Assembly: GCA_963704885.1 (NCBI GenBank)
Contig: CAVPIB010000004.1
Span: 1,024,001-1,088,000, forward strand
Reading direction: 5' to 3'
DNA: 64,000 nt
Origin: an uncultured Actinomycetes bacterium
GTDB lineage: Bacteria; Actinomycetota; UBA4738; HRBIN12
The notes beneath the pieces are model-generated. The model was not told where the DNA came from and searched no databases. It was given only the letters and a program-made list of their open reading frames with translations. Numbering within the stretch: position 1 is the stretch's first letter; each line of letters opens with the position of its first letter. Made by a program: the position numbers and the translations under genes. Positions 14,187-50,813 of the stretch are shown one piece after another.

Positions 14187-14203
14187 GATGAGGAGGCGAG
14201 GGT

Positions 14204-14776: not shown

Positions 14777-14807
14777 GGGTCGCTGGGCATAGGATCGCCG
14801 TGCCGGC

Positions 14808-20152: not shown

Positions 20153-20584
20153 GTGATCGGTCCACTCCGCGTGACACGCTCGGTGGTCGTGCCCGAGGGG
20201 GAGTTGAGATGGCGGTTCAGCCGGTCGTCGGGCCCCGGCGGTCAGTCGGTCAACACCGCCGACTCGCGCGTCGAGCTCAGTCTCGACGTCGCCAAGACGA
20301 CGGCGTTGGGTCCTGTACAGCGAGCCCGCGTTCTCGAGCGCCTGGCCGGCCGGCTGGTGGACGGGGTCCTCACCATCACGGCCTCGGAGCACCGATCGCA
20401 ACTGCAGAACCGCGAAGCCGCGCTCGAGCGGCTCGCCGCGATACTCGCGAAGGCGCTCGCACCTCCGCCACCGCGCCGGCGTCCGACGAAGGCGAGCCGT
20501 GCAGCCGTGGAACGCCGCCTGGCGGCCAAGAAGCAACGGGCGAAGACCAAGGAGCTCCGTCGCGCAGGCAACGACGACGACTAG
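20153..20584 (+). CDS. arfB: Alternative ribosome rescue peptidyl-tRNA hydrolase ArfB
   Basis: RSSGPGGQSVN (GGQ), RSQLQNR, basic tail RRPTKAS...RRLAAKKQRAKTKELR. Confidence 0.95.
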   Translation: MIGPLRVTRSVVVPEGELRWRFSRSSGPGGQSVNTADSRVELSLDVAKTTALGPVQRARVLERLAGRLVDGVLTITASEHRSQLQNREAALERLAAILAKALAPPPPRRRPTKASRAAVERRLAAKKQRAKTKELRRAGNDDD

Positions 20585-20586
20585 GT

Positions 20587-32232: not shown

Positions 32233-33606
32233 ATGAGGACGCTCATCACCGGCGGTACCGTCGTCACCGCCATCGAGACCACGCAAGCCGACGTCGTTAT
32301 CGAAGACGAGAAGGTCGCCGCGATCGGCCGGGGTATGAGCGTCGAGCCGGACGTCACGATCGACGCCACCGACCGATACGTGATGCCGGGTGGCGTCGAC
32401 GTCCACACTCACATGGAGCTGCCGTTCGGCGGAAGCTTCTGCTCGGACGACTTCGAGACCGGCACCCGCGCCGCGGCGTTCGGCGGCACGACCACGATCG
32501 TCGACTTCGCGGTGCAGGACTACGGCGAGGGTCTGCGCCAAGGTCTGGATCGGTGGTTCGCCAAGGCGCAGAACGCCTGCACCGACTACGGCTTCCACGT
32601 GATCGTCCGCGAGGTGAACGACCAGGTCCTCAAGGAGATGGACGAACTGGTCGGCGAGGGAGTCACGTCATTCAAGCTGTTCATGGCATATCCGGGTGTG
32701 TTCATGCTGGACGACGCTTCGATATTCCGAGCCATGCGCCAGGCGGCCGACTCGGGCGCGCTGATCATGATGCACGCCGAGAACGGCGGCCCGATCGACG
32801 TGCTGGTCCGTCAGTTCCTGGAGGAAGGCAAGACCGATCCCATCAACCACGGCCTGACGCGCCCCGCCGTCATGGAGGGCGAAGCTGTGCACCGGGTGTT
32901 CAAGCTGGCCGAGCTTGCGGGCACGCCTGCCTACATCGTCCACCTGTCCTCGCGGGATGCGCTGAACGCGCTCCGCGAGGCGCGCGATCGCGGTCAAGCC
33001 GCCTTCGCGGAGACGTGTCCGCAGTACCTCTATCTGAGCCAGGACGACATGGCGAAGCCGGGCTTCGAGGGCGCGAAGTACGTCTGCTCACCACCGCTCC
33101 GCACGGCCGACCACCAGGAGGAGCTCTGGATGGGGCTGCGCTCCGGCGACCTCTCGGTCGTGTCCACCGATCACGCGCCGTTCAACTACGAAGGTCAGAA
33201 GGACCTGGGCAAGGGGGACTTCTCCAAGATCCCGAACGGGCTTCCCTCCGTCGAGGATCGGTTCACGCTGCTGTACGGAGGGGTCGAGGCGGGCCACATC
33301 GACCTGAACCGCTTCGTGGAGCTGGTGGCCACCGCGCCGGCCAAGATGTTCGGCCTCTACCCGCGCAAGGGAACGATCGCGCCGGGATCCGATGCCGACA
33401 TCGTGGTTTTCGACCCGAAGAAGGAGCGGACGATCTCCTCGTCCACCCACCACATGCGCGTGGACTACTCGGCCTACGAGGGCCGCGTGGTTCGCGGGCT
33501 CCCCGAGGTCGTCATGCAACGCGGCGAGGTCCTGGTGAGCGGCGGGGAGTTCCTGGGCAAGCCGGGACAGGGACGCTTCCAGCCCAGGAGCCGGCTCACG
33601 GCGTAG
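32233..33606 (+). CDS. hydA: Dihydropyrimidinase / D-hydantoinase
   Basis: PGGVDVHTHM, GTRAAAFGGTTTIVDF, SFKLFMAY, MHAENG, ETCPQYL, STDHAPF, IPNGLPSVE. Confidence 0.93.
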   Translation: MRTLITGGTVVTAIETTQADVVIEDEKVAAIGRGMSVEPDVTIDATDRYVMPGGVDVHTHMELPFGGSFCSDDFETGTRAAAFGGTTTIVDFAVQDYGEGLRQGLDRWFAKAQNACTDYGFHVIVREVNDQVLKEMDELVGEGVTSFKLFMAYPGVFMLDDASIFRAMRQAADSGALIMMHAENGGPIDVLVRQFLEEGKTDPINHGLTRPAVMEGEAVHRVFKLAELAGTPAYIVHLSSRDALNALREARDRGQAAFAETCPQYLYLSQDDMAKPGFEGAKYVCSPPLRTADHQEELWMGLRSGDLSVVSTDHAPFNYEGQKDLGKGDFSKIPNGLPSVEDRFTLLYGGVEAGHIDLNRFVELVATAPAKMFGLYPRKGTIAPGSDADIVVFDPKKERTISSSTHHMRVDYSAYEGRVVRGLPEVVMQRGEVLVSGGEFLGKPGQGRFQPRSRLTA

Positions 33607-35944
33607 CCGTGGCAGTCGGCGGTCCGGACGAGGTCCGTGGCCCGACGAGCCCGACGAGGTCGTCGGGCTTCACCGGTACCCGGTTCAGCTCGCGTCCTGT
33701 CGCATCTCGCAGGGCGGCGACGATGGCCGCGGTGGCCACGACGGTCGACGGCTCGCCGACGCCCTTCGCACCGAAGGGCACGCCCGGCTCCGGTTCCTGC
33801 ACCAGCACCGTCAACATGGGCGGCATGTCGAGGATCGTCGGGATCAGATAGTCGGTGAACGACGCGTTGCGGATGTGGCCATCCTCGAGTAGCAGCTCCT
33901 CCATCAGCGCCAGACCCAGGCCCTGCGCCGTCCCGCCCTCGACCTGTCCCTCCACGCTCTTGGGGTTGAGCGCGTTGCCGACGTCTTGGGCGGCGGCTAT
34001 CTGGATCACGCGGACCAGTCCGAGATCCTGATCCACCTCCACGACCGCGCGTTCGACCGCGAAGGCGAACGAGACGTGGACATCCCCCTGTCCCGACTCG
34101 TCCATGGGTTGGGTAGGACGGTGGTGATAGACGCGGGTCGCTTCGATGGGCTCGCCCAGGAGATCCGCGACCGAACCGAGCGCGGACCCCTCGGCCAACA
34201 CCTGTCCCCCGTCCAGGCGTAGCTCGACGGCCCGGTCGATCGAGGGCGTTCGGGCCCGCACACGATCGAAGAGCTTGTTGCGCACGGCGGCGCACGCGAG
34301 CTGCACCGCCCCTCCAGACATCATGGTCTGCCGCGAAGCCGAGCTGGAACCCGCGGAGCCGATGCTCGTGTCGGATGGATCGAGGATCACTTCTTCCACA
34401 CCCAGCTCGCTGCGAGCGATCTGCATCAAGACGGTGTGCACACCCTGGCCGACCTCCGCCGCCGCGCTGTGTATCTCCACGAGCGGCCCGTCGGCTCCCA
34501 TCGAGAGCCTGACGCTCGCCTCCGACGAGTCGTCGAACCCCTCGCTGTAGGCCGTGTTCTTGTACCCGACCGCGAAGCCGACACCGCGTCTCAAGCCCTC
34601 ACCGTGCCCGACGTTCTGCGCTCCCCCCGGGACGGTGATGGGATCCCTTCCGTCCAGACCCGCCGCCCGCTCGGGCGGCATCGGGATCGCCGCGCATCGC
34701 TCGATGAGCTCCCTGACCGGCGCAGTCCCGCCGATGACCTGGCCCGTGGGCAGGGTCGAGCCGGTGGACAGGGCGTTCTTCAGGCGGAGCTCGACCGGGT
34801 CCATGCCCAGTGCGTGGGCGAGCTTGTCCATCTGTCCCTCGTAGGCGAAGCAGGCCTGGACCGCGCCGAACCCACGCATCGCGCCGCACGGCGGATTGTT
34901 GGTGTAGACGCCCGTCCCTTCGATGAGCGCATTCGGAACCTCGTAGGGCCCGCATGCGAACGTGGCGGCGTTTCCGATCACGGCCGTCGACGACGAGGCG
35001 TAGGCTCCTCCGTCCATCAGCAATCGGGCCCGGACGTTGACGAGGCTGCCGTCAGTGTTGGCTCCGTGACGCATCCAGATCCGCGAGGGATGGCGATGCA
35101 CGTGGCCGAGGAAGGACTCGGCACGTCCGTACGACATCTTCACGGGCCTGCCGGTGTGCAGTGCCAGCATGCTCGCGTGTATCTGCATGCTGAGGTCCTC
35201 GCGTGCGCCGAACGCTCCGCCGACCCCCGCGAGATGCACGCGGACCTTCTCTTCGGGCAGACCCAGGCAGGGTGCCATCTGCTGGCGGTCTACGTGCAGC
35301 CACTGGGTGGCGACGTAGACGTCGATCCCTCCGTCCTCGGCGGGCACCGCCAGACCCGCCTCCGGCCCCAGCGGCGCCTGGTCCTGCATCCCCGTCTCGT
35401 AGTAGCCCTCCACCCACACGTCGGCATCCGTATCGGGATCGCCGTGGACGATGCGGACGTTGCGCAGGATGTTGCCGAGCCCCGCGACCTTCGGCGCGTC
35501 GGGCCTGAGCGCCTCCTCCATGTCGGTGACGGCCGGGAGGATCTCGTAGTCCACCACCACGCTGGCCGCCGCCCGTCGAGCCAGCTCCGGATGCTCGGCC
35601 GCCACGATCACGACCGGCTCTCCCACGTACCGCACCTCGTCCCAAGCCAGGACGGGCTGGTCGGCGACATCCAGGCCGTACGTCCTCTTGCCGGGAACGT
35701 CGTCGGCGGTGAGCACGGCGTAAACCCCGGGGCTCGCCACCGCGCCCGCCACCTGTATCGAGCGGATCCTGGCGTGCGGATGAGGGCTGCGGAGCGTATG
35801 TCCCCAGAGCATCTCGTTCGCCCACAGGTCGCTCCCGTAGGCGAACGAACCCTTGGTCTTGGGGATCCCGTCTATCCGCGCGACGTCTTCCCCCATACCC
35901 CCCCGGGTGCGATCCCTCAGGCGCGTGTCACTCAAGGTCGACAC
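33596..35944 (-). CDS. pucD: Xanthine dehydrogenase family molybdopterin subunit (PucD-like)
   Basis: LRSPHPHARI, QDQAPLGPE, GGAFGARED, AMRGFGAVQ, SAGSSSASRQT, GQVEGG, GAKGVGEP. Start GTG 35944. Confidence 0.88.
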   Translation of the reverse strand: MSTLSDTRLRDRTRGGMGEDVARIDGIPKTKGSFAYGSDLWANEMLWGHTLRSPHPHARIRSIQVAGAVASPGVYAVLTADDVPGKRTYGLDVADQPVLAWDEVRYVGEPVVIVAAEHPELARRAAASVVVDYEILPAVTDMEEALRPDAPKVAGLGNILRNVRIVHGDPDTDADVWVEGYYETGMQDQAPLGPEAGLAVPAEDGGIDVYVATQWLHVDRQQMAPCLGLPEEKVRVHLAGVGGAFGAREDLSMQIHASMLALHTGRPVKMSYGRAESFLGHVHRHPSRIWMRHGANTDGSLVNVRARLLMDGGAYASSSTAVIGNAATFACGPYEVPNALIEGTGVYTNNPPCGAMRGFGAVQACFAYEGQMDKLAHALGMDPVELRLKNALSTGSTLPTGQVIGGTAPVRELIERCAAIPMPPERAAGLDGRDPITVPGGAQNVGHGEGLRRGVGFAVGYKNTAYSEGFDDSSEASVRLSMGADGPLVEIHSAAAEVGQGVHTVLMQIARSELGVEEVILDPSDTSIGSAGSSSASRQTMMSGGAVQLACAAVRNKLFDRVRARTPSIDRAVELRLDGGQVLAEGSALGSVADLLGEPIEATRVYHHRPTQPMDESGQGDVHVSFAFAVERAVVEVDQDLGLVRVIQIAAAQDVGNALNPKSVEGQVEGGTAQGLGLALMEELLLEDGHIRNASFTDYLIPTILDMPPMLTVLVQEPEPGVPFGAKGVGEPSTVVATAAIVAALRDATGRELNRVPVKPDDLVGLVGPRTSSGPPTATATP

Positions 35945-35945
35945 C

Positions 35946-37301
35946 TCAGCTCTTCCCCGCCAGGCGCCGCCCGACCCGCCGGGCTTCGGCCGCAACCTCG
36001 TCCTCATCGACGTTGGCCAGGCGGCCCTCACGAACGACAACCCTGCCCTCCACGAAGAGATGCCGCACCTGCTTGGGAGCGCACAGGAGCACCGCCGCGA
36101 CCGGGTCGGCCTCGGCGCCGGCGAAGCCGAGGCCATCCAGCCCGACGAGAGCGATATCGGCTCGCTTCCCGGGCTCGAGCGATCCGATGTCGTCCCTGCC
36201 CAGGCACGCCGCGCCGCCCCGCGTTGCCACCCGCAGGACGTCACGGGCGGCCATAGCCTCCGCGCCTCCGAACGCTCGCGCCGACAGCAGAGCCTGACGC
36301 GACTCGGCGAGCATGTTGCCGATGTCGTTCGACGCCGAGCCGTCCACACCCAGGCCGACGATGGCGCCCGCGTCGAGGAGCGATCGGGCGGGAGCGATGC
36401 CCGAGCCGAGCCGCATGTTCGACGAGGGACACCAGGCGACACCGGAGCCGGTCTCCGCGATCCTGTGGATGTCTGCGTCGTCCAGGTGCACGCAGTGGGC
36501 CAGCCAGACGTCTGGCCCCAACCAGCCTTGTTCCTCGAGCAGTTCGATCGGACGTTTCCCGAAGGTCTCCAGGCAGAAGGCCTCTTCGTCCTTCGTCTCG
36601 GCGATGTGCGTGTGGAGCCTGACACCCAGACGACGAGCGAGCTCGGCCGACTCGCGCATCAGCTTGTCGGTGGCGGAGAAGGGCGAGCACGGAGCCACCC
36701 CGATCCGCAGCATCGCGCCCGGCTCGGGGTCGTGGAACCGCCCGACCGTATCCTCGGTCTGCGCCAGGATCGTGTCGGTCTCCTGAACGACCGAGTCGGG
36801 CGGCAGCCCTCCCGCCGAGCTGCCCAGATCCATCGAGCCCCGGCAGGGGTGGAACCGCAGGCCGATCTCGGCCGCCGCCTCGATCTCGGTTTCCAGCAGC
36901 TCCCCCGCCCCCTGGGGGAACACGTAGTGGTGGTCCGCGGTCGTGGAGCATCCGGAGAGGGCGAGCTCGGCCAGGCCCACGGCCGACGCCGCACGCATCC
37001 ACTCCTGGTCGACGCCGGCCCACACGGGGTAGAGCTCGGTGAGCCAACCGAACAACCCCTGGTCGGCCGCCCGAGCCCGGGTCATGGTCTGGTAGAGGTG
37101 GTGGTGCGTGTTCACCAGACCGGGGATGGCCACGGTGCCGCGGCCGTCCACGCGCTCGGCTCCCTCCGCGCCGGGGGGCGCACCCGAACCGGCCCATGCG
37201 ATGACGCCGTCGTTCACAAGGATGGAGCCCCCTGCGATCTCGGATCCTCGGTCGTCCATGGTCACGACGACCTCGCACGACTCGATGAGCACCTGGCCCA
37301 C
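35946..37301 (-). CDS. 8-oxoguanine deaminase family amidohydrolase
   Basis: PGLVNTHHHLYQTMTRA, LFGWLTELYPVW, RGSMDLG, APCSPFS, HTHIAET, CPSSNMRLGSG, GVDGSASND. Confidence 0.88.
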   Translation of the reverse strand: MGQVLIESCEVVVTMDDRGSEIAGGSILVNDGVIAWAGSGAPPGAEGAERVDGRGTVAIPGLVNTHHHLYQTMTRARAADQGLFGWLTELYPVWAGVDQEWMRAASAVGLAELALSGCSTTADHHYVFPQGAGELLETEIEAAAEIGLRFHPCRGSMDLGSSAGGLPPDSVVQETDTILAQTEDTVGRFHDPEPGAMLRIGVAPCSPFSATDKLMRESAELARRLGVRLHTHIAETKDEEAFCLETFGKRPIELLEEQGWLGPDVWLAHCVHLDDADIHRIAETGSGVAWCPSSNMRLGSGIAPARSLLDAGAIVGLGVDGSASNDIGNMLAESRQALLSARAFGGAEAMAARDVLRVATRGGAACLGRDDIGSLEPGKRADIALVGLDGLGFAGAEADPVAAVLLCAPKQVRHLFVEGRVVVREGRLANVDEDEVAAEARRVGRRLAGKS

Positions 37302-37775
37302 CTAGCTCGCCTCCTCGGGCATCCGCTCCGCGGCGAGCCACACCGCATCGAGGATCTTCGCGTACCCCGTGCAGCGACATAGATTGCCCGACAGCGCCTC
37401 TCGAACAACGGGCTCGGTCGGCGCCGGGTCATGCTCCAGCAGGTCGGTCACGGCCACGATCAGGCCCGGCGTGCAGAACCCGCACTGAACCGCGCCCGCA
37501 TCGACGAACGCCCGCTGTACAGGATGGACCTGGTCGGTCGCCGCGAGCCCCTCGACCGTTCGGACCTCTCGCTCATGCGCCTGCGCCGCCAGGACCAGGC
37601 ACGAGCACACCAGCTCGCCGTCCAGCCAAACGGTGCACGAGCCGCATTCGCCTTGTTCGCATGCGTTCTTCGACCCGGGCAGGCCCATCTCCTCCCGCAG
37701 CACATACAGGAGGTTGGAGCCGGGCCAGACGTCGGCCTCCCGCCACTCGCCGTTGACGCTCACCCGGATCAGCAC
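37302..37775 (-). CDS. Xanthine dehydrogenase 2Fe-2S subunit (PucE/CoxS-like)
   Basis: [30 protein letters not shown]. Confidence 0.92.
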
Positions 37776-37788
37776 CGCCACCCCCCGG

Positions 37789-38667
37789 TCATGTTCGCTC
37801 GATCCCATCCCGGCGCGACGCCAGGGCCCACCCCAGCGCACGTCGCGCCAGGACCAAGCATGCGTGTCGCCGGTACGCGGCCGACCCTCGCACATCGTCG
37901 ATAGGTCTCGCCGCGGCCGCGACCCGTTCGGCGAACCCCTCTATCTCCTCCGAGGCCAGAGCCGCCGCCGGCTCGTCCCATGTGCCGGACCGAGCCAGCG
38001 CCTCGGCCACGAACACCTCAGCGTCGGGCGCACGCAAGACGGTCGGTCCCACGGATCCGAGGGCGACGCGGACCGCGCGGGCGTCCTCGTCCAGCACCAG
38101 ACACAAGCCGGCCACCGAGATCACCATGGCGTTGCGCGTCCCTATCTTCGAGAACGAACCTGGCCCGCGAACCGCTCGCCATCTGGCGCCCAGGATCAGC
38201 TCTTCGGGTTCCAAGGCGGTCTGTTTCGGGCCGAGGTGGAACTCGTCCCAGCGCAAGGTCCGGGTGCGCCTCGCGCTCACGAGGACTATCTGCGCGTCGT
38301 AGGCGGCGAGCACCGGTAGCGCATCGCCGGCGGGCGAACCGGTGCCCAGATTGCCTCCCACCGTTCCGCGGGTGCGGATCTGTGGGGAGCCCACCGTCCG
38401 GGACGCCTGCGCGAGCGGCGTGAGATCGGACAGCTCTCGCAGGATCCGGCCATACGTCACGCCCGCCCCGAGGAAGATGGCGCCCTCCTCTCGCCTCCAC
38501 TCGCGCAGCTCTGGCAGGCGGCAGATGTCGATCATGATCTCCGGCCGGCGCAGGTCGAAGTTCAGCTCGACCATCACGTCAGTACCTCCGGCTATCGGGA
38601 GCGCTCCCGGGTGGGCGGCCCTCATCTCCAGGGCCTCGTCGAGCGTCCGCGCCAGCAACACATCCAT
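37789..38667 (-). CDS. Xanthine dehydrogenase FAD subunit (PucC/CoxM-like)
   Basis: PIAGGTDVMV, TVGSPQIRTRGTVGGNLGTGSPAGD, PIDDVRGSAAYRR. Confidence 0.92.
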   Translation of the reverse strand: MDVLLARTLDEALEMRAAHPGALPIAGGTDVMVELNFDLRRPEIMIDICRLPELREWRREEGAIFLGAGVTYGRILRELSDLTPLAQASRTVGSPQIRTRGTVGGNLGTGSPAGDALPVLAAYDAQIVLVSARRTRTLRWDEFHLGPKQTALEPEELILGARWRAVRGPGSFSKIGTRNAMVISVAGLCLVLDEDARAVRVALGSVGPTVLRAPDAEVFVAEALARSGTWDEPAAALASEEIEGFAERVAAAARPIDDVRGSAAYRRHACLVLARRALGWALASRRDGIERT

Positions 38668-38678
38668 GAAGGATCCCC

Positions 38679-39696
38679 TTAGAACTCCCCGTCGGCGAAG
38701 GCGTCGATCATCGCAGGCACATCGTCTCCGACCGGGTAAAGGATCGGGCAGGTGCAGCCGGCCTCGACGTACTCGCGGACCTTCGCCCTGCACTCGTCGG
38801 GCGTTCCCGCGGCGGAGATCAGCTGCACTGCTTCGTCTGGCACGAGCTTCATGGCGCGGTGGATCTCCTCCGGTCCCGCCGGCCACGTGAGGACCTTGCC
38901 GATCTCCTCGATCAGTGCAGGGTCGATGCCGCTCGCCTTCATGATGTGCGGCTGCTGGCCAAGGTATTGCGTGAGCAGCTCACGAGCTCGATCGAGCGCG
39001 ACGTCTCGATCGTCGTCGAGCGAGCACACGACCAGCTGCGGACGATCGATGTCTTCCACACTTCTACCTACGCGAGCCGCTCCGGCGGCCAGAGCGCGCA
39101 TGGCCTCCTGGTTGTATAGAGGTCCCACCATGTAGTTGAGCACCACTCCGTCCGCGATCTCGCCGGCGAGCTCCATCATCTTCATCCCGGTCGCTCCGAC
39201 GTAGATCGGAACGTTCTTCGGCGAGCGATCGCCGTGCACGATGTCGATCTCGATGTCGTCGACATGGACGAGCTCCCCGTGGAACGTCACGCGTTCCATC
39301 GCCAGGAGCCGTCGCACGACCTCCACGGTCTCGCGCATCGCCAGCAGGGGTTTCCGACGCTGGATCCCGACCTTCGAGGCGAGTGGGTCCCACCAGGCGC
39401 CGATGCCCAGCAGGATCCGTGCCGGGCGCGAGGTCGTCCAGCGTCGAGAACGTGGCCGCGAGCAGACCGACGTTGCGGGTCCAATTGTTGACCACACCCG
39501 AGCCGACCTTGATCCGATCGGTAACGGCGGCGAACGCGGCCATCGGCACGGTCGCTTCTCGGACCAGCCGGCTCTCGGCCTGCCACACCGCCTCGAATCC
39601 CCGCTCCTCGGCGTAGCGCGCATACTCCATCCCCTCGCGGATCGGATGCTTGTCCTGCAGATACAGCGCCACCCTTCCCTCGGTCCTCACGCTCAA
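38679..39696 (-). CDS. Mer-like LLM-class oxidoreductase, putatively F420-dependent (apparent 1-nt insertion at 39420)
   Basis: N-part [20 protein letters not shown]...[12 protein letters not shown] joins [10 protein letters not shown]...[22 protein letters not shown] if one base is removed. Confidence 0.8.
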
Positions 39697-41024
39697 GAGG
39701 CGTCTCCTCCCAACGGATCGAAGCCGTGCGGCTCGATCGACGAGTACCGCTCCCACAGGCGTCGGGCGACCTCCGAGGCTTTCGCCGCGAGTTCGTCTTG
39801 GTCGACCTTGACGAGCCGCCGTTCCCGCACCACGAGCTCGCCGGCCACGATGACGTCTCGCACAGCGCGGGAGGCGAGGCCGAACATCCGATGTCCGGCC
39901 AGGTTCTCGGCCGTCAGCGGGGTGGGCACAGGAGCATCGAGCACCACGAGATCCGCGGCGGCCCCGGGCTCGATCCGCCCGAACGCCGTCTCTTCGAAGA
40001 GCCTGCCCACGAGGCGGCCGCCCTCGGCCAGGCGTGCCGACGGCCATCCGATCGGGAACGAGACGTCGTCATCCCTGGCCCGGAAGTACGCAGCCTTGGC
40101 CTCCGCGAACATGTCGGCGCCGATGCCATCGGTGCCCAGCGCGACCCTATCGCCGAGCGCTGCGACCGCCGCATGACCGACCGAGTTGTTCATATTGGAC
40201 GTGGGGTTGTGCGCGACCGACGCACCCGACTCCCGCACGGACGCCGTCTCGGCTTCGTCAAGGTGGATGCAGTGGGCGAGCAGGGCGCCATCATGCAGCA
40301 CGCCCGCCTTCTCGAGCCTCGGAACCACCCTGATGCCGAAGCGCTCGACCGCGTCTCTTTGATCGCTCACGTCTTCAGCGACGTGGATGTGCAGGCCCGC
40401 GCCCGTCCGTGCCGACACATCCACGCACGCGTCGAGCGTCTCAGGCGAGAGCGTGAAGGACGCGTGGGCCCCCACCATGCCTCGCGCCAGGGGCCGGCGC
40501 TGCGCGAGGAACCGTTCGTTCTCAAGTACTCCAGCCGCGGCGATCCCGGCGCCGTCCCTGTCGCTCACCTCGTAGCAGAGCACCGACCGTATGCCGACCT
40601 CCTCGAGCGCGTTGGCCACGATGTCGAGCGAGCCGTCGACGGCGTTCGGGGATGCGTGGTGATCGACCACCGTGGTGGTTCCGCAGAGCAGCGCTTCCAT
40701 GCCGCCGACCAGCGCGGAAGCGCGGATCGACTCCTCATCCAACGCCCGGTCCAGCCGCCACCAGATGCGCTGGAGGATCTGCACGAAGTTCTCAGGTGGG
40801 GCGAGCCCGTAAGGCATGCCGCGCGCGAGAGCGGAATACAGATGGGTGTGGGCGCACACGTTGCCCGGCACGATCAGGCACCCGGTGCAATCGAGCCTGG
40901 TCCCGCCGCCGGTGGCACTCCCCGGCGCCGAAACGTGGCCGCCTTCCACCACCACGTCGGTCCGTTCGATCATGGGGGGCTCGAGCGCGGAGACCACCGT
41001 CCCCCCCGAGAGCACGAGGGTCAT
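39693..41024 (-). CDS. ssnA: SsnA-like amidohydrolase
   Basis: [80 protein letters not shown]. Confidence 0.85.
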
Positions 41025-41040
41025 CGTTCGCCCGCTCCGC

Positions 41041-43680
41041 CTACGCCCTCGCGCCTTCACCGGCCTCGGCGCGCGCCGAGGCCAGCCGCGGCACCGCCGC
41101 GCGGGCTGCAGGGGAATCGGTCATCGGCAACCGTGTCCTACGCACCCTGTCGAACGCATACAGCGCTCCGGCGACGGCACCGGCCGTCGGAACCAGGGCT
41201 ATCTCGCCGACGCCCTTAGCACCGTAGGGCCCCTCCGGCTGGTGCTCCTCTACGAAGATGCACTCGAGCGGCGGCATCCCCATCGGAGGGATGATGTTGA
41301 GCGACTTCAGCGTCTGCGTCATCGGGATGCCATCCGCCATCACGAGCTCCTCCGACAGCGAGTGTCCGAGACCCATGTGGAGTCCGCCCTCCACCTGTCC
41401 TTCCAGGAGCGTTGGATTGATGACCTTGCCGACGTCGTGTGCGGCGACGATCTTCTCGATAGCGCCGTCGTCGTCAAGGATCACCACCTGGGTCGCCCAG
41501 CCGTAGGCGAAATGCGTTGCGGACCCCTCGGGCCCTTCGCCGGGCTTGTGCGTCCAGTCGATCAACACCTCGCCATAGAACTCTTGTCCCGCAAGGTCTT
41601 CTAGGCGTCCACCGTTCATCGCGGCCTTGAGCTTGGCCGCCGCCTCGATGACTGCTCGCCCGCCCAGCACGGTCGCGCGTGAGGCTGTCGTCTGCCCCGT
41701 GCCGAGCTCCCGCATCGTGTCGACGACGACCACCACGCGGTCCGGTGTAAGACCGAGCTCCTCGCACGCGATCTGCATCAGAGCCGTGTTCGAGCCCTGG
41801 CCCATCTCGGTCCATGAGTGGAACAGGGTCACGCCGCCGTCAGATCCCGGTCGCAGGATCGCCTTCCCGTACTCCGGGAGGCCGTTGCCGATGCCCGTGT
41901 TCTTCACGCCGCACGCAACGCCAGCGTGTTTCGCGCCTCGATAGGCATCTTTGACCGCGAGCAGCGTTCTCTTGAGACCCACGCCGGGGCCCAGAACCTG
42001 ACCGGTCGAGAACGTATCGCCGACCTCCAGCGCGTTGCGCCAGCGGATCTCCCAGCCGTCGATCCCCACCTTCTCGGCCAAGATGTCCATCATGCCCTCG
42101 ATGGCGAAGTTCGACTGGTTGGCACCGAAGCCGCGCATCGCCCCGCACGGTGGGTTGTTCGTGAAGACCGCGCGAGCCTCGATATCCACGTTCGGCACCC
42201 GGTACGCGCTGCAGGCGTGACCCGCAGCTCGTTCGAGGACCTTGTCGCCCACGCTCGCGTACGCGCCGGTATCTCCCACCATCCGGCTCCGGACCGCCAC
42301 CAGCCGGCCCTCTTCGTCGCAGCCGACCGTGTACTCCATGGTGATGGGGTGTCGCTTCGGGTGGAAGCGGATGCTTTCGGCCCTGGAGAGCGTGAGGAGA
42401 ACGGGCCGTCCCGTCATGCGCGCCAGCAAGCATGCATGCGTCTGGACGTTCAGGTCCTCCTTGGCACCGAAAGCGCCGCCGTTGGAGACCTGGGTCACGC
42501 GCACCTGATCGTTGGGCACCCCGAGGAAGGACGCGATCTGGTCTCGGTCTTCCCAGACACCCTGCCCCTGGGAGAAGCAGTGGATGCCTTCGTCGGTCGG
42601 CATAGCGAAGGCCGACTCGGGCTCCAGGAAGGCATGTTCGATGAACTGCGTCCGGAAGGTCTCGGTGGCAACGTGCGCGGCCGTCGCCAGCGCACCGTCC
42701 ACGTCGCCCCGCTTGACCTCGGAGATCGAGAAGAGATTGCCGTTCTCGTGGATCTCCGGAGCACCGTCGGCGATCGCGTCGAATGGATCGGTGACGGGCT
42801 CGAGGACCTCGTACTCGACATCGATCAGAGCCGCAGCCTCTCGCGCGGCCACGCGGTCTTCCGCCGCTACGACGGCCATGACGTCGCCGACGTAGCTCGT
42901 GATCTCGCCCTCCGCGACGAACTGTCGCCAGTCCTTGACGATCAACCCCTGCCTTCGCTCCCCCGGCACGTCCTTCCACGTGGCGACGGCCGCGACGCCG
43001 GGGTATGCCTCAGCCCTCGACGTGTCGATCTTCGTGATGAGCGCGCGCGGATGCTCGGACCAGGCAACGGCCCCGTGCAGCATGCGGGGCGCCTTCATGT
43101 CGTTGATGTAGGCCTTGTCGCCGAGCGCGAGGTCGTGCCCCTGGTACCTGGCCGTCCTAGACCCGACGCGGCCGCTACGGTCGATCTCGGGCATCGGCTC
43201 GCCACGCCTGGCCCCGGCCACCAACCGGATGGCGTCGATGATCTTGACGTAGCCGGTGCACCGGCAGAGGTTCCCGGCGAGCGCCTTGGCCACATCCTCA
43301 CGAGACGGGTTCGGGCTCTTCGCCAGTAGCGATTCGGACTTCATCACGATGCCGGGCGAGCAGAACCCGCACTGGGACGCTCCGGCCGCGACGAAGCAGT
43401 CCGCCCACTGGTGCCGCCGATCGGGTGTGAGTCCCTCCTGGGTCGTGATGCTCTTCCCGATGAACCTGGCGGCAGGCTGCGCGCACGATACGACGGCCTT
43501 CGCGTCGACCAACACGGTGCAGGCGCCGCACGATCCTTCCGGCGCGCATCCGTCCTTGACCGACGTGACACCGCAGCCCACGCGCAGGAGGTCGAGGAGG
43601 CTGGCGCCCCCGCCGACCTCGACGGACATCGGCTCACCGTTGAGTATGAATTCCACCCTGAGCCTCCGGTCCCGAGCCAT
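41041..43680 (-). CDS. xdh: Selenium-dependent-type xanthine dehydrogenase family molybdoenzyme (fused 2Fe-2S + Moco, no FAD domain)
   Basis: SVKDGCAPEGSCGAC, QCGFCSPG, CRCTGYVKI, EHAFLEPES, GGAFGAKEDL, KRHP, KNTGIGNG, TTASR, GAKGVGEI; context with ssnA/ygeXYW. Confidence 0.82.
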   Translation of the reverse strand: MARDRRLRVEFILNGEPMSVEVGGGASLLDLLRVGCGVTSVKDGCAPEGSCGACTVLVDAKAVVSCAQPAARFIGKSITTQEGLTPDRRHQWADCFVAAGASQCGFCSPGIVMKSESLLAKSPNPSREDVAKALAGNLCRCTGYVKIIDAIRLVAGARRGEPMPEIDRSGRVGSRTARYQGHDLALGDKAYINDMKAPRMLHGAVAWSEHPRALITKIDTSRAEAYPGVAAVATWKDVPGERRQGLIVKDWRQFVAEGEITSYVGDVMAVVAAEDRVAAREAAALIDVEYEVLEPVTDPFDAIADGAPEIHENGNLFSISEVKRGDVDGALATAAHVATETFRTQFIEHAFLEPESAFAMPTDEGIHCFSQGQGVWEDRDQIASFLGVPNDQVRVTQVSNGGAFGAKEDLNVQTHACLLARMTGRPVLLTLSRAESIRFHPKRHPITMEYTVGCDEEGRLVAVRSRMVGDTGAYASVGDKVLERAAGHACSAYRVPNVDIEARAVFTNNPPCGAMRGFGANQSNFAIEGMMDILAEKVGIDGWEIRWRNALEVGDTFSTGQVLGPGVGLKRTLLAVKDAYRGAKHAGVACGVKNTGIGNGLPEYGKAILRPGSDGGVTLFHSWTEMGQGSNTALMQIACEELGLTPDRVVVVVDTMRELGTGQTTASRATVLGGRAVIEAAAKLKAAMNGGRLEDLAGQEFYGEVLIDWTHKPGEGPEGSATHFAYGWATQVVILDDDGAIEKIVAAHDVGKVINPTLLEGQVEGGLHMGLGHSLSEELVMADGIPMTQTLKSLNIIPPMGMPPLECIFVEEHQPEGPYGAKGVGEIALVPTAGAVAGALYAFDRVRRTRLPMTDSPAARAAVPRLASARAEAGEGARA

Positions 43681-43703
43681 GCTGGCCCGCGTTCAACGAG
43701 TCG

Positions 43704-44848
43704 TCAATCCGTGCCCACGATCTGGCGATAGGCCTGTGGGTCGGTTGCCCCTTCCGTAGAGACCACCAGCACGGTGCTGCCACCGTCGACGCCCAGCGAG
43801 CGCCGCGCGTCCTCAGCGGAGGGGCCGGTCAGGACTTCGAGCAGCCCGCCCAACCCCGAGGCGCCGGACTCCCCGGAAACGATGCCCTCCTTCGCGAGCA
43901 GTCGCATCGCCTCGCGCGCACGTTCGTCCTCGATCGCGACGAACACATCGATACCACGGGAGAGCACGGGCCAAGCGATCAGCGACGGCGTCCCGCAGTT
44001 GAGGCCAACCATGATCGAGCGGTGAGGACCCGGAACGCTCACGACCGTTCCCGCGCGAGCGGACTCGAGCGCACAGTCGGCGTCGAGGGGCTCGACGCCG
44101 ACGATCGCCGTGTGTCCGACAGCGTCGGGGCTCCGCAGATGCTGCACCACCGCACACGCGAAGGCCCCAACGCCGATCTGGGCGGCCGCGAGGTCGATCC
44201 GGTCGCCTGTCGCATCGAGCGCTCCCTGCACCTCGCGCATCACCGTTCCGTATCCCTCGATGATCCACCGCGGAACGCGGTCGTAGCCGGGCCAGGAGGT
44301 GTCGGAGATCACGAGGCAGTCATCAGACGCCTCGGCCGCCGATCGACGGATCGTCTCGTCGTAGTCGCCGTCCACCACGGTCACGCGGGCGCCCTCCGAC
44401 GCGATCGCAGCGATGCGCGCGTCCGACGTCCCTTCAGGCACGAGGATGTCAGCGCCCAGGCCCAGGAGCGCCGCCATCCGCGCGACCGCTCGGCCGTGGT
44501 TCCCGTCGGTCGCCGCCGCGAGCGAAAGGGGCTTGATCGGTGCCAACAGCTCGCCGAGTTGATCGAACGTCTCCCAAGCGGGGAGCGGATCGCCCAGCTT
44601 CTCCAGGACCGCTCGATAGACGGCCCAGGACGCGCCGAGGATCTTGAACGAGGGCAGGCCGAACCGGCTGGACTCGTCCTTCACGAGGACGCGGGCGACC
44701 CCAAGAGCTGCGGCGATACCAGGCGCGCTCAGCAATGGCGACGGCTCGTACCCAGGCAAGCGCTCGTGGAACCGCAGAGGCTCCGGCGTTGGTGGCTCAT
44801 CCAGGCGGAACCGCCGCGCCTCTTCTAGGTTGTCGAACCGCTCGCTCC

Positions 44849-44852
<4 letters not shown>
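43704..44852 (-). CDS. dpaL: Diaminopropionate ammonia-lyase (YgeX/DpaL)
   Basis: [64 protein letters not shown]. Confidence 0.9.
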
Positions 44853-46341
<1,489 letters not shown>

Positions 46342-46345
<4 letters not shown>

Positions 46346-47340
46346 ACTCGAAACCCGCCCATGGTGAGAGCCATGAGGGCCTTCCCCGTGTGTAGGCGGT
46401 TCTCGGCTTCCTGGAAGACGACCGAGTGCGGCCCGTCGATCACCTCGTCGGTGACCTCCGAGCCTCGGTCGGCCGGCAGGCAATGCATGTAGAGGGAGTC
46501 CTCTCGCGCGAGCGACATCCGGCGAGCGTCGCAGATCCAGTCCTGATACTTCGAGCCGTCGGCAAGTGCTTCCTGCTCGTTGCCGAACAGATCCAGCCGG
46601 CCCCAAGACTTCGGATAGACCACGTCGGCGCCTTCGAATGCTGCGTCCATGTCGTCTACGAAAGTGATCGAGCCTCCACCCTGCGCGGCGGCGTCTTCGG
46701 CTCGCTTCTGCAGCTCGGGCATGAAGCCGTAGCCCGGCGGATGGGCTACTACAACCTCTGCGCCGAATCGCGGAAGGAGAGCCACCAGGCCCTGCGGCAC
46801 CGAGATCGGCTTCGCGTAGGACGGCGCGTGCGCCCAGCTGACGGCAACACGTAGCCCCCGGATGTCGTTGCCGCGAAGCTCTCTGATGGTCATGAGATCC
46901 GCGAGCGTCTGCGTCGGGTGGTCCACGTCGCACTGGAGGTTGATCACGGGCACCTCCGCCCACTCGGCGACCGCGCGCATATACGCATTGCCCTCATACG
47001 GAACGAGGTCATGACGGATCGCGATGCCGTGCCCGTAGCTCGAGAGGATGATGCCGAAGTCCTTCGGGCTCTCGCCGTGCGCCACCTGCGTCTTCTCGGC
47101 GTCGAGATAGTGGGCGTGTCCCCCCAACTGGGTCATCCCTGCCTCGAAAGCGTTGCGGGTCCTCGTCGACTTGTCGAGGAACAACATGAACAGCGTCTTG
47201 TCGGGAAGCAGGCGGTGCGCCTCGCCCCGCTTGAACTTGTCCTTCAGCTCCCCGGCGACGTCGAGAGCCTCGTCGATCGCCTCGACTGACCAATCGAGCG
47301 TCTCGATGTAGTCGTGTCCGGCCAGCGTCTCGCGATCCAC
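46342..47340 (-). CDS. ygeW: YgeW-like carbamoyltransferase
   Basis: [16 protein letters not shown], YgeW-type [30 protein letters not shown]. Confidence 0.78.
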
Positions 47341-47374
47341 CCCTGGTCCTCCTCTCGCCTCGGAAAGTCTGGGC

Positions 47375-48595
47375 TCAGCTCGACCCCGCACCCGACGCCG
47401 CAAGGTACCGCTCGGGGAAGGCCGCGTACCACGCTGCGGCCGTGGCGAGATGTTCGACCGGACACTGGTCGTCGACGCTGTGCGCGTAGATCTCGTTCGC
47501 GGGCCCGAACCCGATCGTCGGGATCCCGAGCTCCCCGGCGCTCGAGACGCCGTTCGTCGAGAAGATCCAACGGCTGACCTTCGGGGTCCGGCCGAGGGCG
47601 TGCTCGCCGGCCTCGACCCCTGCCTTCACGGAAGGATGAGCTTCATCCGTCACCCAGGTCGGGAAGTACTTGGGCGTCTTGAGCGTGAGCCCGGTGTAGG
47701 CCTTGCCCTCGTACTGCACGAGCTCGATCTGCGCGTCCCCGTCCTGGACGGCCGGCAGCGACTCCAGCTCGGCCTGGGACGACTCCACCGACTCGCCGAT
47801 CGTCAGGCGCCTGTCGAGGAAGATCGTGCATCCGTCCGGCACGGCGTTCAGCGAGGGCGTCTGGCACTCCACCTTCGAGACGACGACGGTCCCTTTGCCC
47901 AGGAACGGATCGGGGGCGAGTCGCTCGTTCAGTTGCTCGATCTGCTGGGCGATCGGAGCCATCATGTAGATGGCGTTGACCCCGCGCTCGGGAGCCGAGG
48001 CGTGGGCCGCCTTGCCGCGCGTGTGGATAGCGAACTCCGCGCGCCCACGGTGCCCCCGGTATACCTGCAGGTTCGTCGCCTCACCGAGCACGACCACCTC
48101 GGCTTTGGGGATCACGTTCGTCAGGAGGTATCCGAGCGCCAACCCGTCGCAGTCCTCCTCTTGGACGGTACCCACTACCCATAATGTGAACCTCGACGTG
48201 TCGATGCCGAGGCGTCGGATGAGCGACGCGCCGTAGACCATCGAGGCGATCGCCGCCTTGTTGTCCGAAGCGCCGCGGCCGTACAGGACGCCACCTTCGA
48301 TCCTGGCTTTGAACGGATCGGACTTCCACAGGCTTAGGTCGCCGGTGTCGACCACGTCGATGTGGGAGTCGTAGACGATGTGGACGGGGCCGTCACCGAT
48401 GCGACCGATCACGCTGCCGAACCCATCGACGATGACCTCGTCGAAACCCATCCGCGTCATCTCGTTGCCGATGCGCTGCACGACCGAGTTCTCGTCCCTC
48501 GACAGGCTCGGCAAGGAGACCAAGTCGGCCAGGAAGGACGTCACCGCCTCGGAATCCCGATCGGCTTCCTTCTGGTAGCGCTCGTCGAGCTTCAT
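47375..48595 (-). CDS. ygeY: YgeY family M20 hydrolase
   Basis: DSHIDVV, GRGASDNK, GTVQEEDCDG, YRGHRGR, HASAPERGVNAIY, SLNAVPD, RWIFSTNGV, GFGPANE..AH. Confidence 0.88.
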   Translation of the reverse strand: MKLDERYQKEADRDSEAVTSFLADLVSLPSLSRDENSVVQRIGNEMTRMGFDEVIVDGFGSVIGRIGDGPVHIVYDSHIDVVDTGDLSLWKSDPFKARIEGGVLYGRGASDNKAAIASMVYGASLIRRLGIDTSRFTLWVVGTVQEEDCDGLALGYLLTNVIPKAEVVVLGEATNLQVYRGHRGRAEFAIHTRGKAAHASAPERGVNAIYMMAPIAQQIEQLNERLAPDPFLGKGTVVVSKVECQTPSLNAVPDGCTIFLDRRLTIGESVESSQAELESLPAVQDGDAQIELVQYEGKAYTGLTLKTPKYFPTWVTDEAHPSVKAGVEAGEHALGRTPKVSRWIFSTNGVSSAGELGIPTIGFGPANEIYAHSVDDQCPVEHLATAAAWYAAFPERYLAASGAGSS

Positions 48596-48696
48596 CCGTC
48601 AACCCTCCGGCCCCAGGCCGTCCCCCGGCGGGTAGCCATCCGCGATAGCCGTCGACATCCCGCCGACAAGCCTTCACCGGCAGTAAACCACAGGCG

Positions 48697-48729
48697 GCTG
48701 GACGGGCTGCCGTAGGCAGCCCGTCCAGC
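48697..48729. terminator. Perfect 15-bp hairpin downstream of the ABC substrate-binding gene (terminator or mRNA stabiliser)
   Basis: GCTGGACGGGCTGCC-GTA-GGCAGCCCGTCCAGC. Confidence 0.65.
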
Positions 48730-48773
48730 TACTCCACCCGACCTCAGGCCGGCTCAGTCACCCGCGGCGATCC

Positions 48774-49932
48774 TTACGCGCCGCCCTCCTCGAGCGTGAC
48801 CTCCGTCGGCGCATAGCTATCGCCGGACGTGTCAACGCCCAGATCGGCCAAGGCCGCGAGCGCCTCGTTCACGATGTCGTTCGTCCACGCCCCATCGGTC
48901 GGCTCCGCGGTAAGCACCGTGGCTCCCTCCAGGTTCGGAGTATCCATCGCGATCTGGACCGTGCGGTCCCACGCGGCCTCGTCGATCACGCCGATCCCGT
49001 TCGAGGACGGCCAGATCAGCTGGTTGATCTCGTTCATCTGCCACAGCTGGTGGCTGTTGCCGAGCTTCGAGCCCTTCGCCACGACGATGTCGCGGCACTC
49101 CTCGACGTTGTCCCGGCAGTAAGCCCATCCCTGCAGCGACGCGGTCACGAACCGTACCGCCATGTCGCGGTATGCGGCGTCGGACTCGAGCTTGTCGGCG
49201 TTCGCCCAGATCGCATCCTGCAGCATGCCGACGCCCTCGCCCTCGTAAGACACGACGTTCAGCTCGTCCGGCGTGTACAGCTCACCCGTGTCCGGGTTCA
49301 CGGCCTCCAGCACCTGCGCGTACTCGTTGTAGATCATGGCCTCGGCGGCGTCGATGTCGCCCGACAGCAGCCCAAGCATGTCGAACTGCTGCTGCACCAA
49401 CGAGACGTCGTTAGCGGGGTCGAGGCTCTTCCTTGGCCAGGGCGGCGAAGATCTCGTACTCGTTGCCGAAACCCCAGTTGCCGATCGTCTTTCCGGCGAA
49501 GTCGGCGGCCGACGTGATCCCGGCGTCCTTGAACGAGACCTGCAGCGTGCCGGAACGCTGGAACACCTGCGCGATGTTCACGATGTTCGCCCCGGCCTCG
49601 CGGCTCGCGAGGGCCTTCGGGACCCACGCCATCGCGAAGTCCACGGCGCCATCGGCGAGCTGCTGCTGGGGCACGATGTCGACGCCGCCCTCGACGATCG
49701 TCACGTCCAGGCACTGGTCGGCGTAGAAGCCCTTGTCCTGCGCCGCGAAGAACCCTGCGAACTGAGCCTGGATGAACCACTGCAGCTGGAGCTTGACCGA
49801 GTCGGTCGTCGTGCACTCCTCTTCGCCGCCGCCGCCGCCCCCGCCTCCTCCGTCGTCGTTGCTACATGCTGCGCCCACGAGCGCGAGCGCCACCACCCCT
49901 GCGGCGATGAGACGGAATCGATGACCCCTCAT
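48774..49932 (-). CDS. ABC transporter substrate-binding lipoprotein, NMT1/THI5-like (apparent 1-nt insertion near 49427)
   Basis: Lipobox VGAAC; LQLQWFIQAQFAGFFAA, AQVFQRSG; LAKE(G)LDPANDVSLVQQQFDM joins the two ORF-track fragments. Confidence 0.85.
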
Positions 49933-50000
49933 GTGTTGCCTCCTCCCCCCGGGGCGACAGCCCCGCTCGAACTTCTCTCAAGACGATCGGCCATCATGCC

Positions 50001-50813
50001 CTATCGAGACGTCGGCCGCCGACCCGGCGTGGCGACGCGCTCCAACCCCACCGCGATCAGGTAGAACGTGAGCCCCAGGAGGCAGGCCCCCATCACGTAG
50101 GCCCAGGCCGATGCGTTCTTCGAGATCGCGATGCTCGCGACTATCCGGCTCCCCAGGCCGTTCTGGCTGCCGCCGAAGTACTCCGAGACGAACGCCGTGA
50201 TAACGGCGGCCGGCGCCGCGATCCTGAGCGCCGTGAACAGGTACGGCACCGCGTTCGGCACCCGGACCTTCCGCAGGATCGCGACCTCGCTGGCCGCGTA
50301 GGAGCGCATCAACTCGAGCTGCGTCGGACCGACCTCCCTTAGACCTCTGGCCACATTCACCAATACGATGAAATAGACGACGAGGCTCACCATCAGCCGC
50401 CGAGGCACCTCGCTGGTGATCGAGAACATGTTATTGAACACCGACACCAGGACGAAGATCGGTACCGCGTTGAGTCCGATCGCGAGCGGCGTGACCAGGT
50501 CGTTCAACAGGCGGAACCGCACCAGCAGGAAGCTCATCGTGATGCCGAGCCCGGTTCCCACCAGCAACCCGATCAGGGCGTTCAGCCCGGAGACCTTCGT
50601 CGCGTTCCATATCAGGGTCGTGTTCTCGTTGAACTGCTGCCAGATCGAAGTCGGTGCCGGCAGGAAGTAGGGCTTGAAGTCGAACACCTTCACGGCGAGC
50701 TCCCAGAGCACGAGGAACCCGAGACCGAACACGACCGGCGGCCACAGGGACTGGAACAGCGACCCGGTCGAGCGGGTCCGCCGGGCCTGGCTGGACGCCA
50801 GCGCGGAGCTCAC
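50001..50813 (-). CDS. ABC transporter permease (TauC/SsuC-like)
   Basis: YFLPAP, EAA-like ELMRSYAAS...KVRVPNAVPYLF, SEYFGG. Confidence 0.9.
   Translation of the reverse strand: MSSALASSQARRTRSTGSLFQSLWPPVVFGLGFLVLWELAVKVFDFKPYFLPAPTSIWQQFNENTTLIWNATKVSGLNALIGLLVGTGLGITMSFLLVRFRLLNDLVTPLAIGLNAVPIFVLVSVFNNMFSITSEVPRRLMVSLVVYFIVLVNVARGLREVGPTQLELMRSYAASEVAILRKVRVPNAVPYLFTALRIAAPAAVITAFVSEYFGGSQNGLGSRIVASIAISKNASAWAYVMGACLLGLTFYLIAVGLERVATPGRRPTSR

Follow-up and report, generated by a model that had tools for sequence, protein, structure and literature searches.

In a 64,000-nucleotide stretch of contig CAVPIB010000004.1 from an uncultured Actinomycetes bacterium (hereafter, the window), we analyzed a gene of the luciferase-like monooxygenase (LLM) family that directly follows a gene for an SsnA-type amidohydrolase. 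The LLM gene occupies positions 39696-38679 of the minus strand and encodes a Mer-like, F420-type oxidoreductase of 338 codons when a 1-nt insertion at 39420/39419 is read through. On balance, we favor the view that this protein is an F420H2-dependent 2,8-dioxopurine reductase acting together with SsnA in the reductive breakdown of uric acid; its substrate, cofactor, and reaction direction are those that we infer from its relatives and its gene context. The original prediction had named the same activity and considered that it would be new, but the idea is already in print, having been proposed for Chloroflexota by Li et al. 2025 (Life Metab, PMC12507026). The window LLM is an Actinomycetota-type member of this predicted kind of enzyme.

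The LLM gene is part of a minus-strand module in which the xdhD, ssnA, LLM, and FAD-subunit genes overlap or are separated by gaps of at most 11 nt. The first of them encodes a fused Fe-S and molybdopterin hydroxylase of the XdhD or selenium-dependent xanthine dehydrogenase (XDH) type (41041..43680; TIGR03311, 981 bits with the cut-off at 830; domains Fer2_2, Ald_Xan_dh_C, and MoCoBD; 27% identity to E. coli XdhD), a candidate for the step from urate to 2,8-dioxopurine. The SsnA-type protein (39693..41060) shares 37% identity with E. coli SsnA over 445 amino acids (E 6e-84), and scored just above the cut-off of NF005540 (444.1 vs 444 bits) and below that of TIGR03314 (426.6 vs 455.5 bits). Its TGA stop (39695-39693) and the TTG start of the LLM gene (39696-39694) share a TTGA at 39696-39693, which is the overlap that had been noticed in the original prediction, and intact homologues of the LLM open with M-S-V-R-T-E-G at the same residue as this TTG. 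The LLM gene ends with TAA at 38681-38679, and the ATG of the gene for the XdhB/YgfM-type FAD-binding subunit (37789..38667; FAD_binding_5 and CO_deh_flav_C domains) lies 11 nt past the stop.

The pathway to which these genes point is described by Li et al. 2025 (PMC12507026; bioRxiv 10.1101/2025.05.19.654654). In their account, XdhD-YgfM reduces urate to 2,8-dioxopurine, which YgfK and SsnA turn into ureidomethyl-hydantoin, followed by HyuA, YgeW (or UacY), YgeY, and YgeX; coupling to SsnA was suggested as the reason why their YgfK needed SsnA. Liu et al. 2025 named YgfK an NADPH:2,8-dioxopurine oxidoreductase. For Chloroflexota, Li et al. 2025 report neither YgfK nor UacX near SsnA and instead a luciferase-family, putatively F420-dependent reductase, which they call a putative yanthine (2,8-dioxopurine) reductase; as set out in that account, the proposal is drawn from gene neighborhood. 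Full-text literature searches found no biochemical test of F420-dependent 2,8-dioxopurine reduction, and among the hits listed only Li et al. 2025 and its preprint were relevant to a link of F420 with SsnA or with 2,8-dioxopurine.

The window shows the same combination of genes as that described for Chloroflexota, as the PF00296 (LLM) gene is within 15 open reading frames (ORFs) of SsnA, there is no YgfK (IPR017701) in the window, and no UacX or PreA type protein (PF01180) was matched among the window ORFs scanned. The best tblastn matches of E. coli K-12 YgfK and YgfT to the window had E values of 2.3 and 0.39, respectively. Two window ORFs reach 1000 amino acids, and both were identified as other proteins, i.e., a PucD-type XDH subunit (33596-36625) and a cyclase/AAA/TPR protein (54529-57729), in agreement with the earlier statement that the window holds no Fe-S flavoprotein of ~1000 amino acids. 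The window also carries counterparts of HyuA, YgeW, YgeY, and YgeX.

The gene order of E. coli is ygfK-ssnA-ygfM-xdhD, so that ygfK adjoins ssnA as had been stated. Like the gene for YgfK (DOPOR, an NAD(P)H:2,8-dioxopurine oxidoreductase known from E. coli and Clostridium sporogenes), the LLM gene belongs to a four-gene module that includes ssnA, xdhD, and the FAD subunit gene, and the reaction proposed for the LLM is that of YgfK. The likeness is one of functional analogy and not of homology, since the LLM has no sequence similarity to YgfK. The latter is described as an NAD(P)H-dependent Fe-S flavoprotein of 1032 amino acids, whereas the LLM is a 338-aa TIM barrel that probably uses F420H2, and no Fe-S or nucleotide-binding domain was found in it by the searches run. 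A precedent for replacement of the enzyme of this step is UacX, a PydA/dihydroorotate dehydrogenase (DHODH)-like flavin mononucleotide (FMN) reductase, which takes the place of YgfK in Clostridioides difficile (Li et al. 2025). The LLM would be another non-YgfK solution, unlike UacX in that the latter has the PF01180 fold and is proposed to be ferredoxin-linked.

In the mechanism that we propose, the XdhD-type neighbor would make 2,8-dioxopurine (isoxanthine or yanthine) from urate, and the LLM would transfer a hydride from F420H2 to the electrophilic C6 of this compound, by analogy with Mer, which reduces methylene-tetrahydromethanopterin at its methylene carbon. The co-translated SsnA would open the reduced ring and pull the reaction forward, and a hydantoinase, a carbamoyltransferase, YgeY, and YgeX would take the product to diaminopropionate and pyruvate. 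The LLM would fill the role of YgfK (an Fe-S flavoprotein) or UacX, although it is related to neither.

The LLM resembles F420-dependent enzymes in sequence and predicted fold

The 3' ORF of the LLM gene matched PF00296 with 144.9 bits (gathering cut-off 27.9; E 4.8e-42; profile positions 99-313), and intact orthologues from related loci matched nearly the whole profile with 224-250 bits. At E ≤ 1e-10, 19 NCBIfam families were detected, the 16 best of which are F420-dependent LLM families with Mer, the F420-dependent methylenetetrahydromethanopterin reductase, at the top. All nine sequence matches to solved structures at E ≤ 1e-10 were F420 enzymes, i.e., Mer (six sequence variants), Fgd1 (two), and hydroxymycolic acid dehydrogenase. 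Mer was the best match by sequence (E 8e-44, ~31% identity) as well as by fold. In Mer, the hydride of F420H2 is passed to an iminium-type carbon, a chemistry like that proposed for the LLM. The LLM differs from Mer in that it is bacterial, has a purine-catabolic gene context, and falls below both Mer equivalog cut-offs (TIGR03555, 175.9 vs 348.7 bits; NF002619, 183.1 vs 276 bits).

An AlphaFold model was made for an intact homologue (P0002) that is 97% identical to the window LLM, using a 33-row alignment (pLDDT 92.5, pTM 0.91). The model aligned with structures of Mer with bound F420 (8qpl and 1z69) with a TM score of 0.86. All 30 fold matches listed by Foldseek are LLMs (TIM barrels); among them, ranks 1-18 are all F420 enzymes and the FMN-type LLMs come next with TM scores of 0.64-0.74. 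Sequence and predicted fold together bear out the original assignment to the Mer-like F420 type, and suggest that the LLM most probably uses reduced coenzyme F420.

An exhaustive protein search retrieved 14155 cluster representatives at E ≤ 0.001 and 429 at E ≤ 1e-30; in another homologue search, more than 8000 protein clusters had E ≤ 1e-20. Full-length neighbors outside the family of the LLM fall to 53% identity or below. Judged by these sequence comparisons, the family is a tight, distinct, and highly conserved orthologous group that is Mer-like but not Mer. Three long representatives (P0203, P0211, and P0214) were inspected as possible fusions of the LLM with a partner protein and rejected, as they look like gene calls through frameshifts; P0211 combines a partial Amidohydro_1 domain with a partial LLM.

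RutA-type pyrimidine oxygenases, which act on uracil, are also LLMs, and some carriers of the gene are aerobes judging from their taxon labels. On these grounds, the LLM might be no reductase at all but an FMN-dependent monooxygenase, with oxidative opening or hydroxylation of the ring as in the action of RutA on uracil. We consider this very improbable, because RutA (TIGR03612) is missing from the matches at E ≤ 1e-10, the FMN-type families listed scored only 52 and 42 bits compared with 183 for Mer, and the FMN LLMs rank under all F420 enzymes in the fold search. In addition, domain and family scans revealed no flavin reductase gene in the cluster, and F420 genes are linked to the LLM gene in Chloroflexota (see below).

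The LLM gene is paired with ssnA in Actinomycetota

To profile the genomic context of the family, genomes were scanned with the family alignment as seed (one genome per species). At least 568 loci with a relative were detected, and the best 80 (69-91% identity) were examined. By taxon label, the majority of the 80 are from Actinomycetota (Thermoleophilia, Gaiellales, Acidimicrobiia, Nocardioides, Fodinibacter, and Streptosporangiaceae), with others from Acidobacteriota (Blastocatellia and Chloracidobacterium), Chloroflexota (Anaerolineae, Caldilineae, and Ardenticatenales), and one Deinococcus metagenome-assembled genome (MAG). The presence of ssnA could be judged in those 68 loci in which the sequence upstream of the LLM gene extends over 1300 nt or more.

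Of these 68 loci, 45 have ssnA directly upstream of the LLM gene and on its strand, 8 have it nearby, and 15 lack it within the flank. Among the 44 loci labeled Actinomycetota it was directly upstream in 38, nearby in 5, and absent in 1, and it was directly upstream in all five loci without a phylum label, in the Fervidifonticultor locus (n = 1), and in a 'Pseudomonadota' MAG (n = 1). No directly upstream ssnA was found in Chloroflexota (nearby in 1 and absent in 9 of 10 loci), Acidobacteriota (nearby in 2 and absent in 3 of 5), Onstottus (absent; n = 1), or Deinococcus (absent; n = 1). The distance from the ssnA stop to the LLM start was between -28 and +60 nt in 41 of 52 loci measured, 17 of which have a 4-nt overlap (ATGA or GTGA) equivalent to TTGA in the window. 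Of the other module and pathway genes, an XdhD-like gene was detected in 37 and a YgeW-like gene in 39 of the 80 loci, and an FAD-subunit gene follows the LLM gene directly in 19. E. coli YgfK and YgfT had hits at E ≤ 1e-10 in none of the flanks of the 80 loci, nor in the window.

A quick maximum-likelihood tree (IQ-TREE, 90 rows) was built, omitting L049, whose translated span overran a stop, and L051, whose match was shorter than 900 nt. The window LLM falls, with support (SH-aLRT 98), in a clade that comprises 57 Actinomycetota-type rows, in which ssnA is adjacent in 48, near in 5, and not found in 1, the flank being too short in 3. All directly upstream ssnA-LLM pairs fall within this clade, and the Chloroflexota and Acidobacteriota rows are outside it. 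Two loci labeled Pseudomonadota (L008) and Candidatus Velamenicoccus (Omnitrophota; L029) have ssnA-LLM pairs nested in the Actinomycetota-type clade, and are either mis-binned contigs or cases of gene transfer.

In Acidobacteriota, the LLM gene is divergent from a conserved PF07969 amidohydrolase gene in 6 of 10 loci; PF07969 is the family used for UacY by Li et al. 2025 (PMC12507026). A CN-hydrolase is encoded in 6 and SsnA (476-478 bits) in 3 of these 10 loci, each of which has at least one uricolytic-type gene.

The original prediction had regarded the LLM as a replacement for YgfK. The frequent ssnA-LLM pairing (45 of 68 loci) and the lack of YgfK (0 of 80) agree with this; the mutual exclusion is not a strict one, as two Anaerolineae loci have a PreA/DHODH-like gene beside the LLM gene.

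F420 genes adjoin the LLM gene in Chloroflexota

Flanking genes for F420 biosynthesis or reduction were detected in 8 of 13 Chloroflexota loci. They were found in none of the flanks of the 67 other loci, nor in the window, in a search whose queries came from Chloroflexota and have limited sensitivity outside this phylum. In the Anaerolineales locus L071, one strand encodes a molybdenum hydroxylase subunit, an unassigned ORF, SsnA (534 bits), npdG (NADPH-dependent F420 reductase), cofE, an FbiB C-terminal-domain-like gene, cofD, cofC, and the LLM, so that the F420 genes lie between ssnA and the LLM gene. The gene order is cofD-cofC-LLM in L072, with xdhC and XDH subunit genes further downstream, and npdG-cofE-LLM in both L078 and L079, the former with a PnrA/Bmp-type ATP-binding cassette (ABC) transporter upstream. 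In L076 the LLM gene is followed by those for an XDH FAD/Fe-S subunit and a molybdenum subunit and, further downstream, by a fused yqeC/mocA gene, and in L056 an Fno-like gene comes after the LLM gene.

The LLM of L071, a 68%-identical orthologue of the window protein, fits the description that Li et al. 2025 give of their Chloroflexota protein. Like the latter, the window LLM is a PF00296 protein in an SsnA neighborhood with neither YgfK nor UacX, and it has been predicted to have that same function. It differs in belonging to the Actinomycetota-type clade, in which the gene is directly after ssnA and often overlaps it. We infer that the two belong to one family.

Some observations weigh against the favored reading. 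The ssnA gene is adjacent in 0 of 10 Chloroflexota and 0 of 5 Acidobacteriota judged loci, indicating that the family is not tied to ssnA everywhere, and is absent within 10 kb in 9 and 3 of them, respectively. A PreA/DHODH-like gene (PF01180-type by NCBIfam matches, as in the alternative reductase UacX) is directly downstream of the LLM gene in L079 (11068-12141, plus strand) and L078 (~11110, plus strand), with scores of 173 and 166 bits that are below cut-offs. The LLM reaches no curated NCBIfam cut-off and no family names its function, domain scans of the window ORFs revealed no F420 biosynthesis gene, and the window copy of the LLM gene is interrupted by a frameshift in the sequence as given.

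Part of this evidence would be expected if the LLM were F420-dependent but acted on a different N-heterocycle, a ureide intermediate, or in a general F420-linked reaction, with the adjacency of ssnA in Actinomycetota as a secondary recruitment and the 2,8-dioxopurine reductase encoded elsewhere. The frequent absence of ssnA from the Chloroflexota and Acidobacteriota loci, F420 biosynthesis and reduction genes as the commonest Chloroflexota neighbors (8 of 13 loci), the PreA/DHODH-like genes, and the lack of a curated family would all agree with it. On the other side, purine- or ureide-type neighbors are present even without an adjacent ssnA, including the XDH subunits and yqeC/mocA of L076, xdhC of L072, the PnrA/Bmp-type transporter of L078, and the PF07969 protein, CN-hydrolase, and SsnA of Acidobacteriota. 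The identity of 68-91% over three phyla fits a single conserved substrate, and the 4-nt overlap with ssnA recurs (17 of 52 loci). We therefore regard a different substrate as unlikely, and continue to favor 2,8-dioxopurine reduction. What stands of the original prediction is the Mer-like type of the protein, its place in a uricolytic module without YgfK, and the pairing with ssnA; the activity it named is still a prediction, the copy on which it was based is interrupted, and most Chloroflexota and Acidobacteriota relatives are not adjacent to ssnA.

The frameshift in the window copy is probably an assembly error

Read from 39696 on the minus strand, frame 1 of the LLM gene makes sense up to ...TLDDLAPG and is nonsense thereafter, and the protein continues in the next frame to ...DGEF-stop. 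Codon G92 is at 39423-39421, after which the minus strand reads A-CGG-ATC. Taking ACGG as a single step gives a stop-free protein of 338 amino acids (P0001). At this site the nearest relatives have GGC AGG or GGC CGG (10 loci compared) and the window has GGC-AC-GG, indicating that the inserted base is 39420, or 39419 if the Arg codon was AGG, in agreement with the position of 39420 given in the original prediction. The site (39419..39420, minus strand) is next to a switch at 39427/39436 in the phase of third-position G+C content (GC3) in the window, the G+C content of which is ~68%. Inspection of the sequence revealed no homopolymer or slippery run at the insertion.

The GC3 phase plot of the window has three in-gene switches, the others being at 49444/49451 and 60255/60256, and these two correspond to frameshifts in two further genes. 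One encodes an NMT1/THI5-type solute-binding protein of an ABC transporter (49977-48774, minus strand; site near 49430), the halves of which match positions 2-114 and 120-213 of PF09084 in different frames. The other is a third LLM gene (59883-60780, plus strand; site near 60297), with halves matching positions 15-133 and 133-236 of PF00296; the best matches of its N-terminal half are F420-class families, e.g., TIGR03560 and TIGR03619.

If the frameshift were true, the LLM gene would be a recent pseudogene in this genome, and the reductive pathway would be blocked or run by another enzyme. That the insertion is in the sequence and outside any homopolymer is compatible with this, and three frameshifted genes per 64 kb could also mean ongoing gene decay. 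Other signs of decay are, however, absent. The read-through protein differs from the intact 338-aa homologue P0002 at 10 of 338 positions (97% identity over the full length) and agrees with 17 homologues in all 199 columns in which these do not vary. A scan of the cluster from ygeY to pucD detected no internal frame switch in the other genes scanned, and the gene is split in none of the 80 related loci. The 120 best homologues listed (84-97% identity, 330-350 amino acids) are likewise contiguous. Given that three isolated single-base switches within 64 kb occur in genes that are otherwise well conserved, which resembles assembly indel errors, an assembly indel is more likely than a genuine lesion, though unproven, and the window copy is probably intact in reality. 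Loss of the gene is an unlikely but by no means negligible alternative, and the window LLM should not be labeled a pseudogene before the reads have been checked.

Two other explanations for the frameshift were considered and rejected. Programmed frameshifting does not agree with the lack of a slippery run and with the contiguous genes of all 120 listed homologues and all 80 loci. Two of the three frameshift sites are near GATC, as might be expected of errors at a methylation motif, but GATC occurs 729 times in the window and 13% of all bases are within 4 nt of one (P ~0.05, post hoc).

Other genes of the cluster and the window

The module is part of a closely packed row of minus-strand genes that runs from 48595 down to 33596. 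The row begins with a YgeY-family M20 hydrolase gene (47375..48595; NF009555, 477 bits vs a cut-off of 321; 46% identity to E. coli YgeY) and one for a carbamoyltransferase like YgeW and ornithine carbamoyltransferase (46342..47403; below all curated cut-offs; 36% identity to E. coli YgeW). These are followed by a CysK-like gene, the second for a pyridoxal phosphate (PLP) enzyme (~46300-44849; recognized by a PALP domain and GC3 phase, start uncertain), and by the gene for diaminopropionate ammonia-lyase, the counterpart of YgeX (43704..44852; NF006058, 363 vs 276 bits; 36% identity to E. coli YgeX). The E. coli cluster contains no equivalent of the CysK-like gene that lies between those for the carbamoyltransferase and the ammonia-lyase, and a similar gene is upstream of the LLM gene in L036 (4577-6163). 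A D-hydantoinase/dihydropyrimidinase gene, the counterpart of hyuA, faces the row from the plus strand (32233..33606; TIGR02033, 591 vs 393 bits; 44% identity to E. coli HyuA). No match to carbamate kinase (YqeA) was found within the window in a search with the E. coli K-12 protein.

Downstream of the FAD subunit gene, the row continues with genes for a [2Fe-2S] small subunit of a molybdenum hydroxylase (37302..37895, minus strand; Fer2_2; true start probably near 37790), an 8-oxoguanine deaminase-type amidohydrolase (35946..37301, minus strand; NF006055, 657 vs 532 bits), and a PucD-type XDH molybdenum subunit (33596..~35914, minus strand; TIGR03196, 863 vs 784 bits, aligned from residue 245). 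The 1009-aa ORF at 33596-36625 is this PucD subunit with an artefactual N-terminal extension. The deaminase gene (37301-35946) is thus flanked by those for the Fe-S subunit and the molybdenum subunit of a conventional XDH, an arrangement suggesting that 8-oxoguanine is here a source of urate.

Another LLM in the window scored above the cut-off of the F420-class family TIGR03842 (570 vs 295 bits). Within a minus-strand group of genes at 54616-48774, its gene comes after one for a CN-hydrolase (N-carbamoyl-amidase-like) and before those for an ABC transporter. Together with the D-hydantoinase, the CN-hydrolase and this LLM might be an F420-dependent variant of reductive pyrimidine or hydantoin breakdown; a full-text literature search on F420 with dihydropyrimidine dehydrogenase and uracil found nothing on such a pathway. 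CN-hydrolases 58% identical to that of the window occur in the Acidobacteriota LLM clusters. At 12480-15740 of the window, the gene for a fourth LLM (14808-15740, minus strand; recognized by Pfam only) is grouped with those for a PF07969 amidohydrolase of 568 amino acids and a metallo-beta-lactamase-fold protein. This amidohydrolase had no tblastn hit to the amidohydrolase partner of the LLM in Acidobacteriota, so the two are not close.

Elsewhere in the window, an ORF with RTX calcium-binding repeats is present at 19199-20767 (minus strand), and the ORF at 54529-57729 (plus strand) encodes a 1066-aa adenylate/guanylate cyclase-AAA-TPR regulator and points away from the cluster. A scan of the whole window with Rfam gave no matches at gathering scores. 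At 33000-50500, no promoter-like sites were detected, and the six terminator-like sites, compared with 4.3 expected, are uninformative.

Implications for reductive uric acid breakdown

If the LLM has the function that we favor, a third enzyme unrelated to YgfK and UacX would be available for dearomatization in the reductive breakdown of urate, and coenzyme F420 would gain a central catabolic role in bacteria. The family is large and very conserved, and among its carriers are the cultured Fodinibacter luteus (L039) and Aciditerrimonas ferrireducens (L053), which makes the published proposal directly testable. More tentatively, and as a possibility rather than an expectation, an F420H2:2,8-dioxopurine reductase that is free of Fe-S clusters, and probably oxygen-tolerant, may open the 'anaerobic' reductive uric acid pathway to Actinomycetota, Acidobacteriota, and Chloroflexota that live aerobically in soil, a suggestion that follows from the lack of an Fe-S domain in the LLM. 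Turnover of purine nitrogen by this route could then be widespread outside the gut, and in some Anaerolineales, given that the genes for F420 biosynthesis and the NADPH:F420 reductase are inside the same cluster, the cofactor may be made largely for the LLM.

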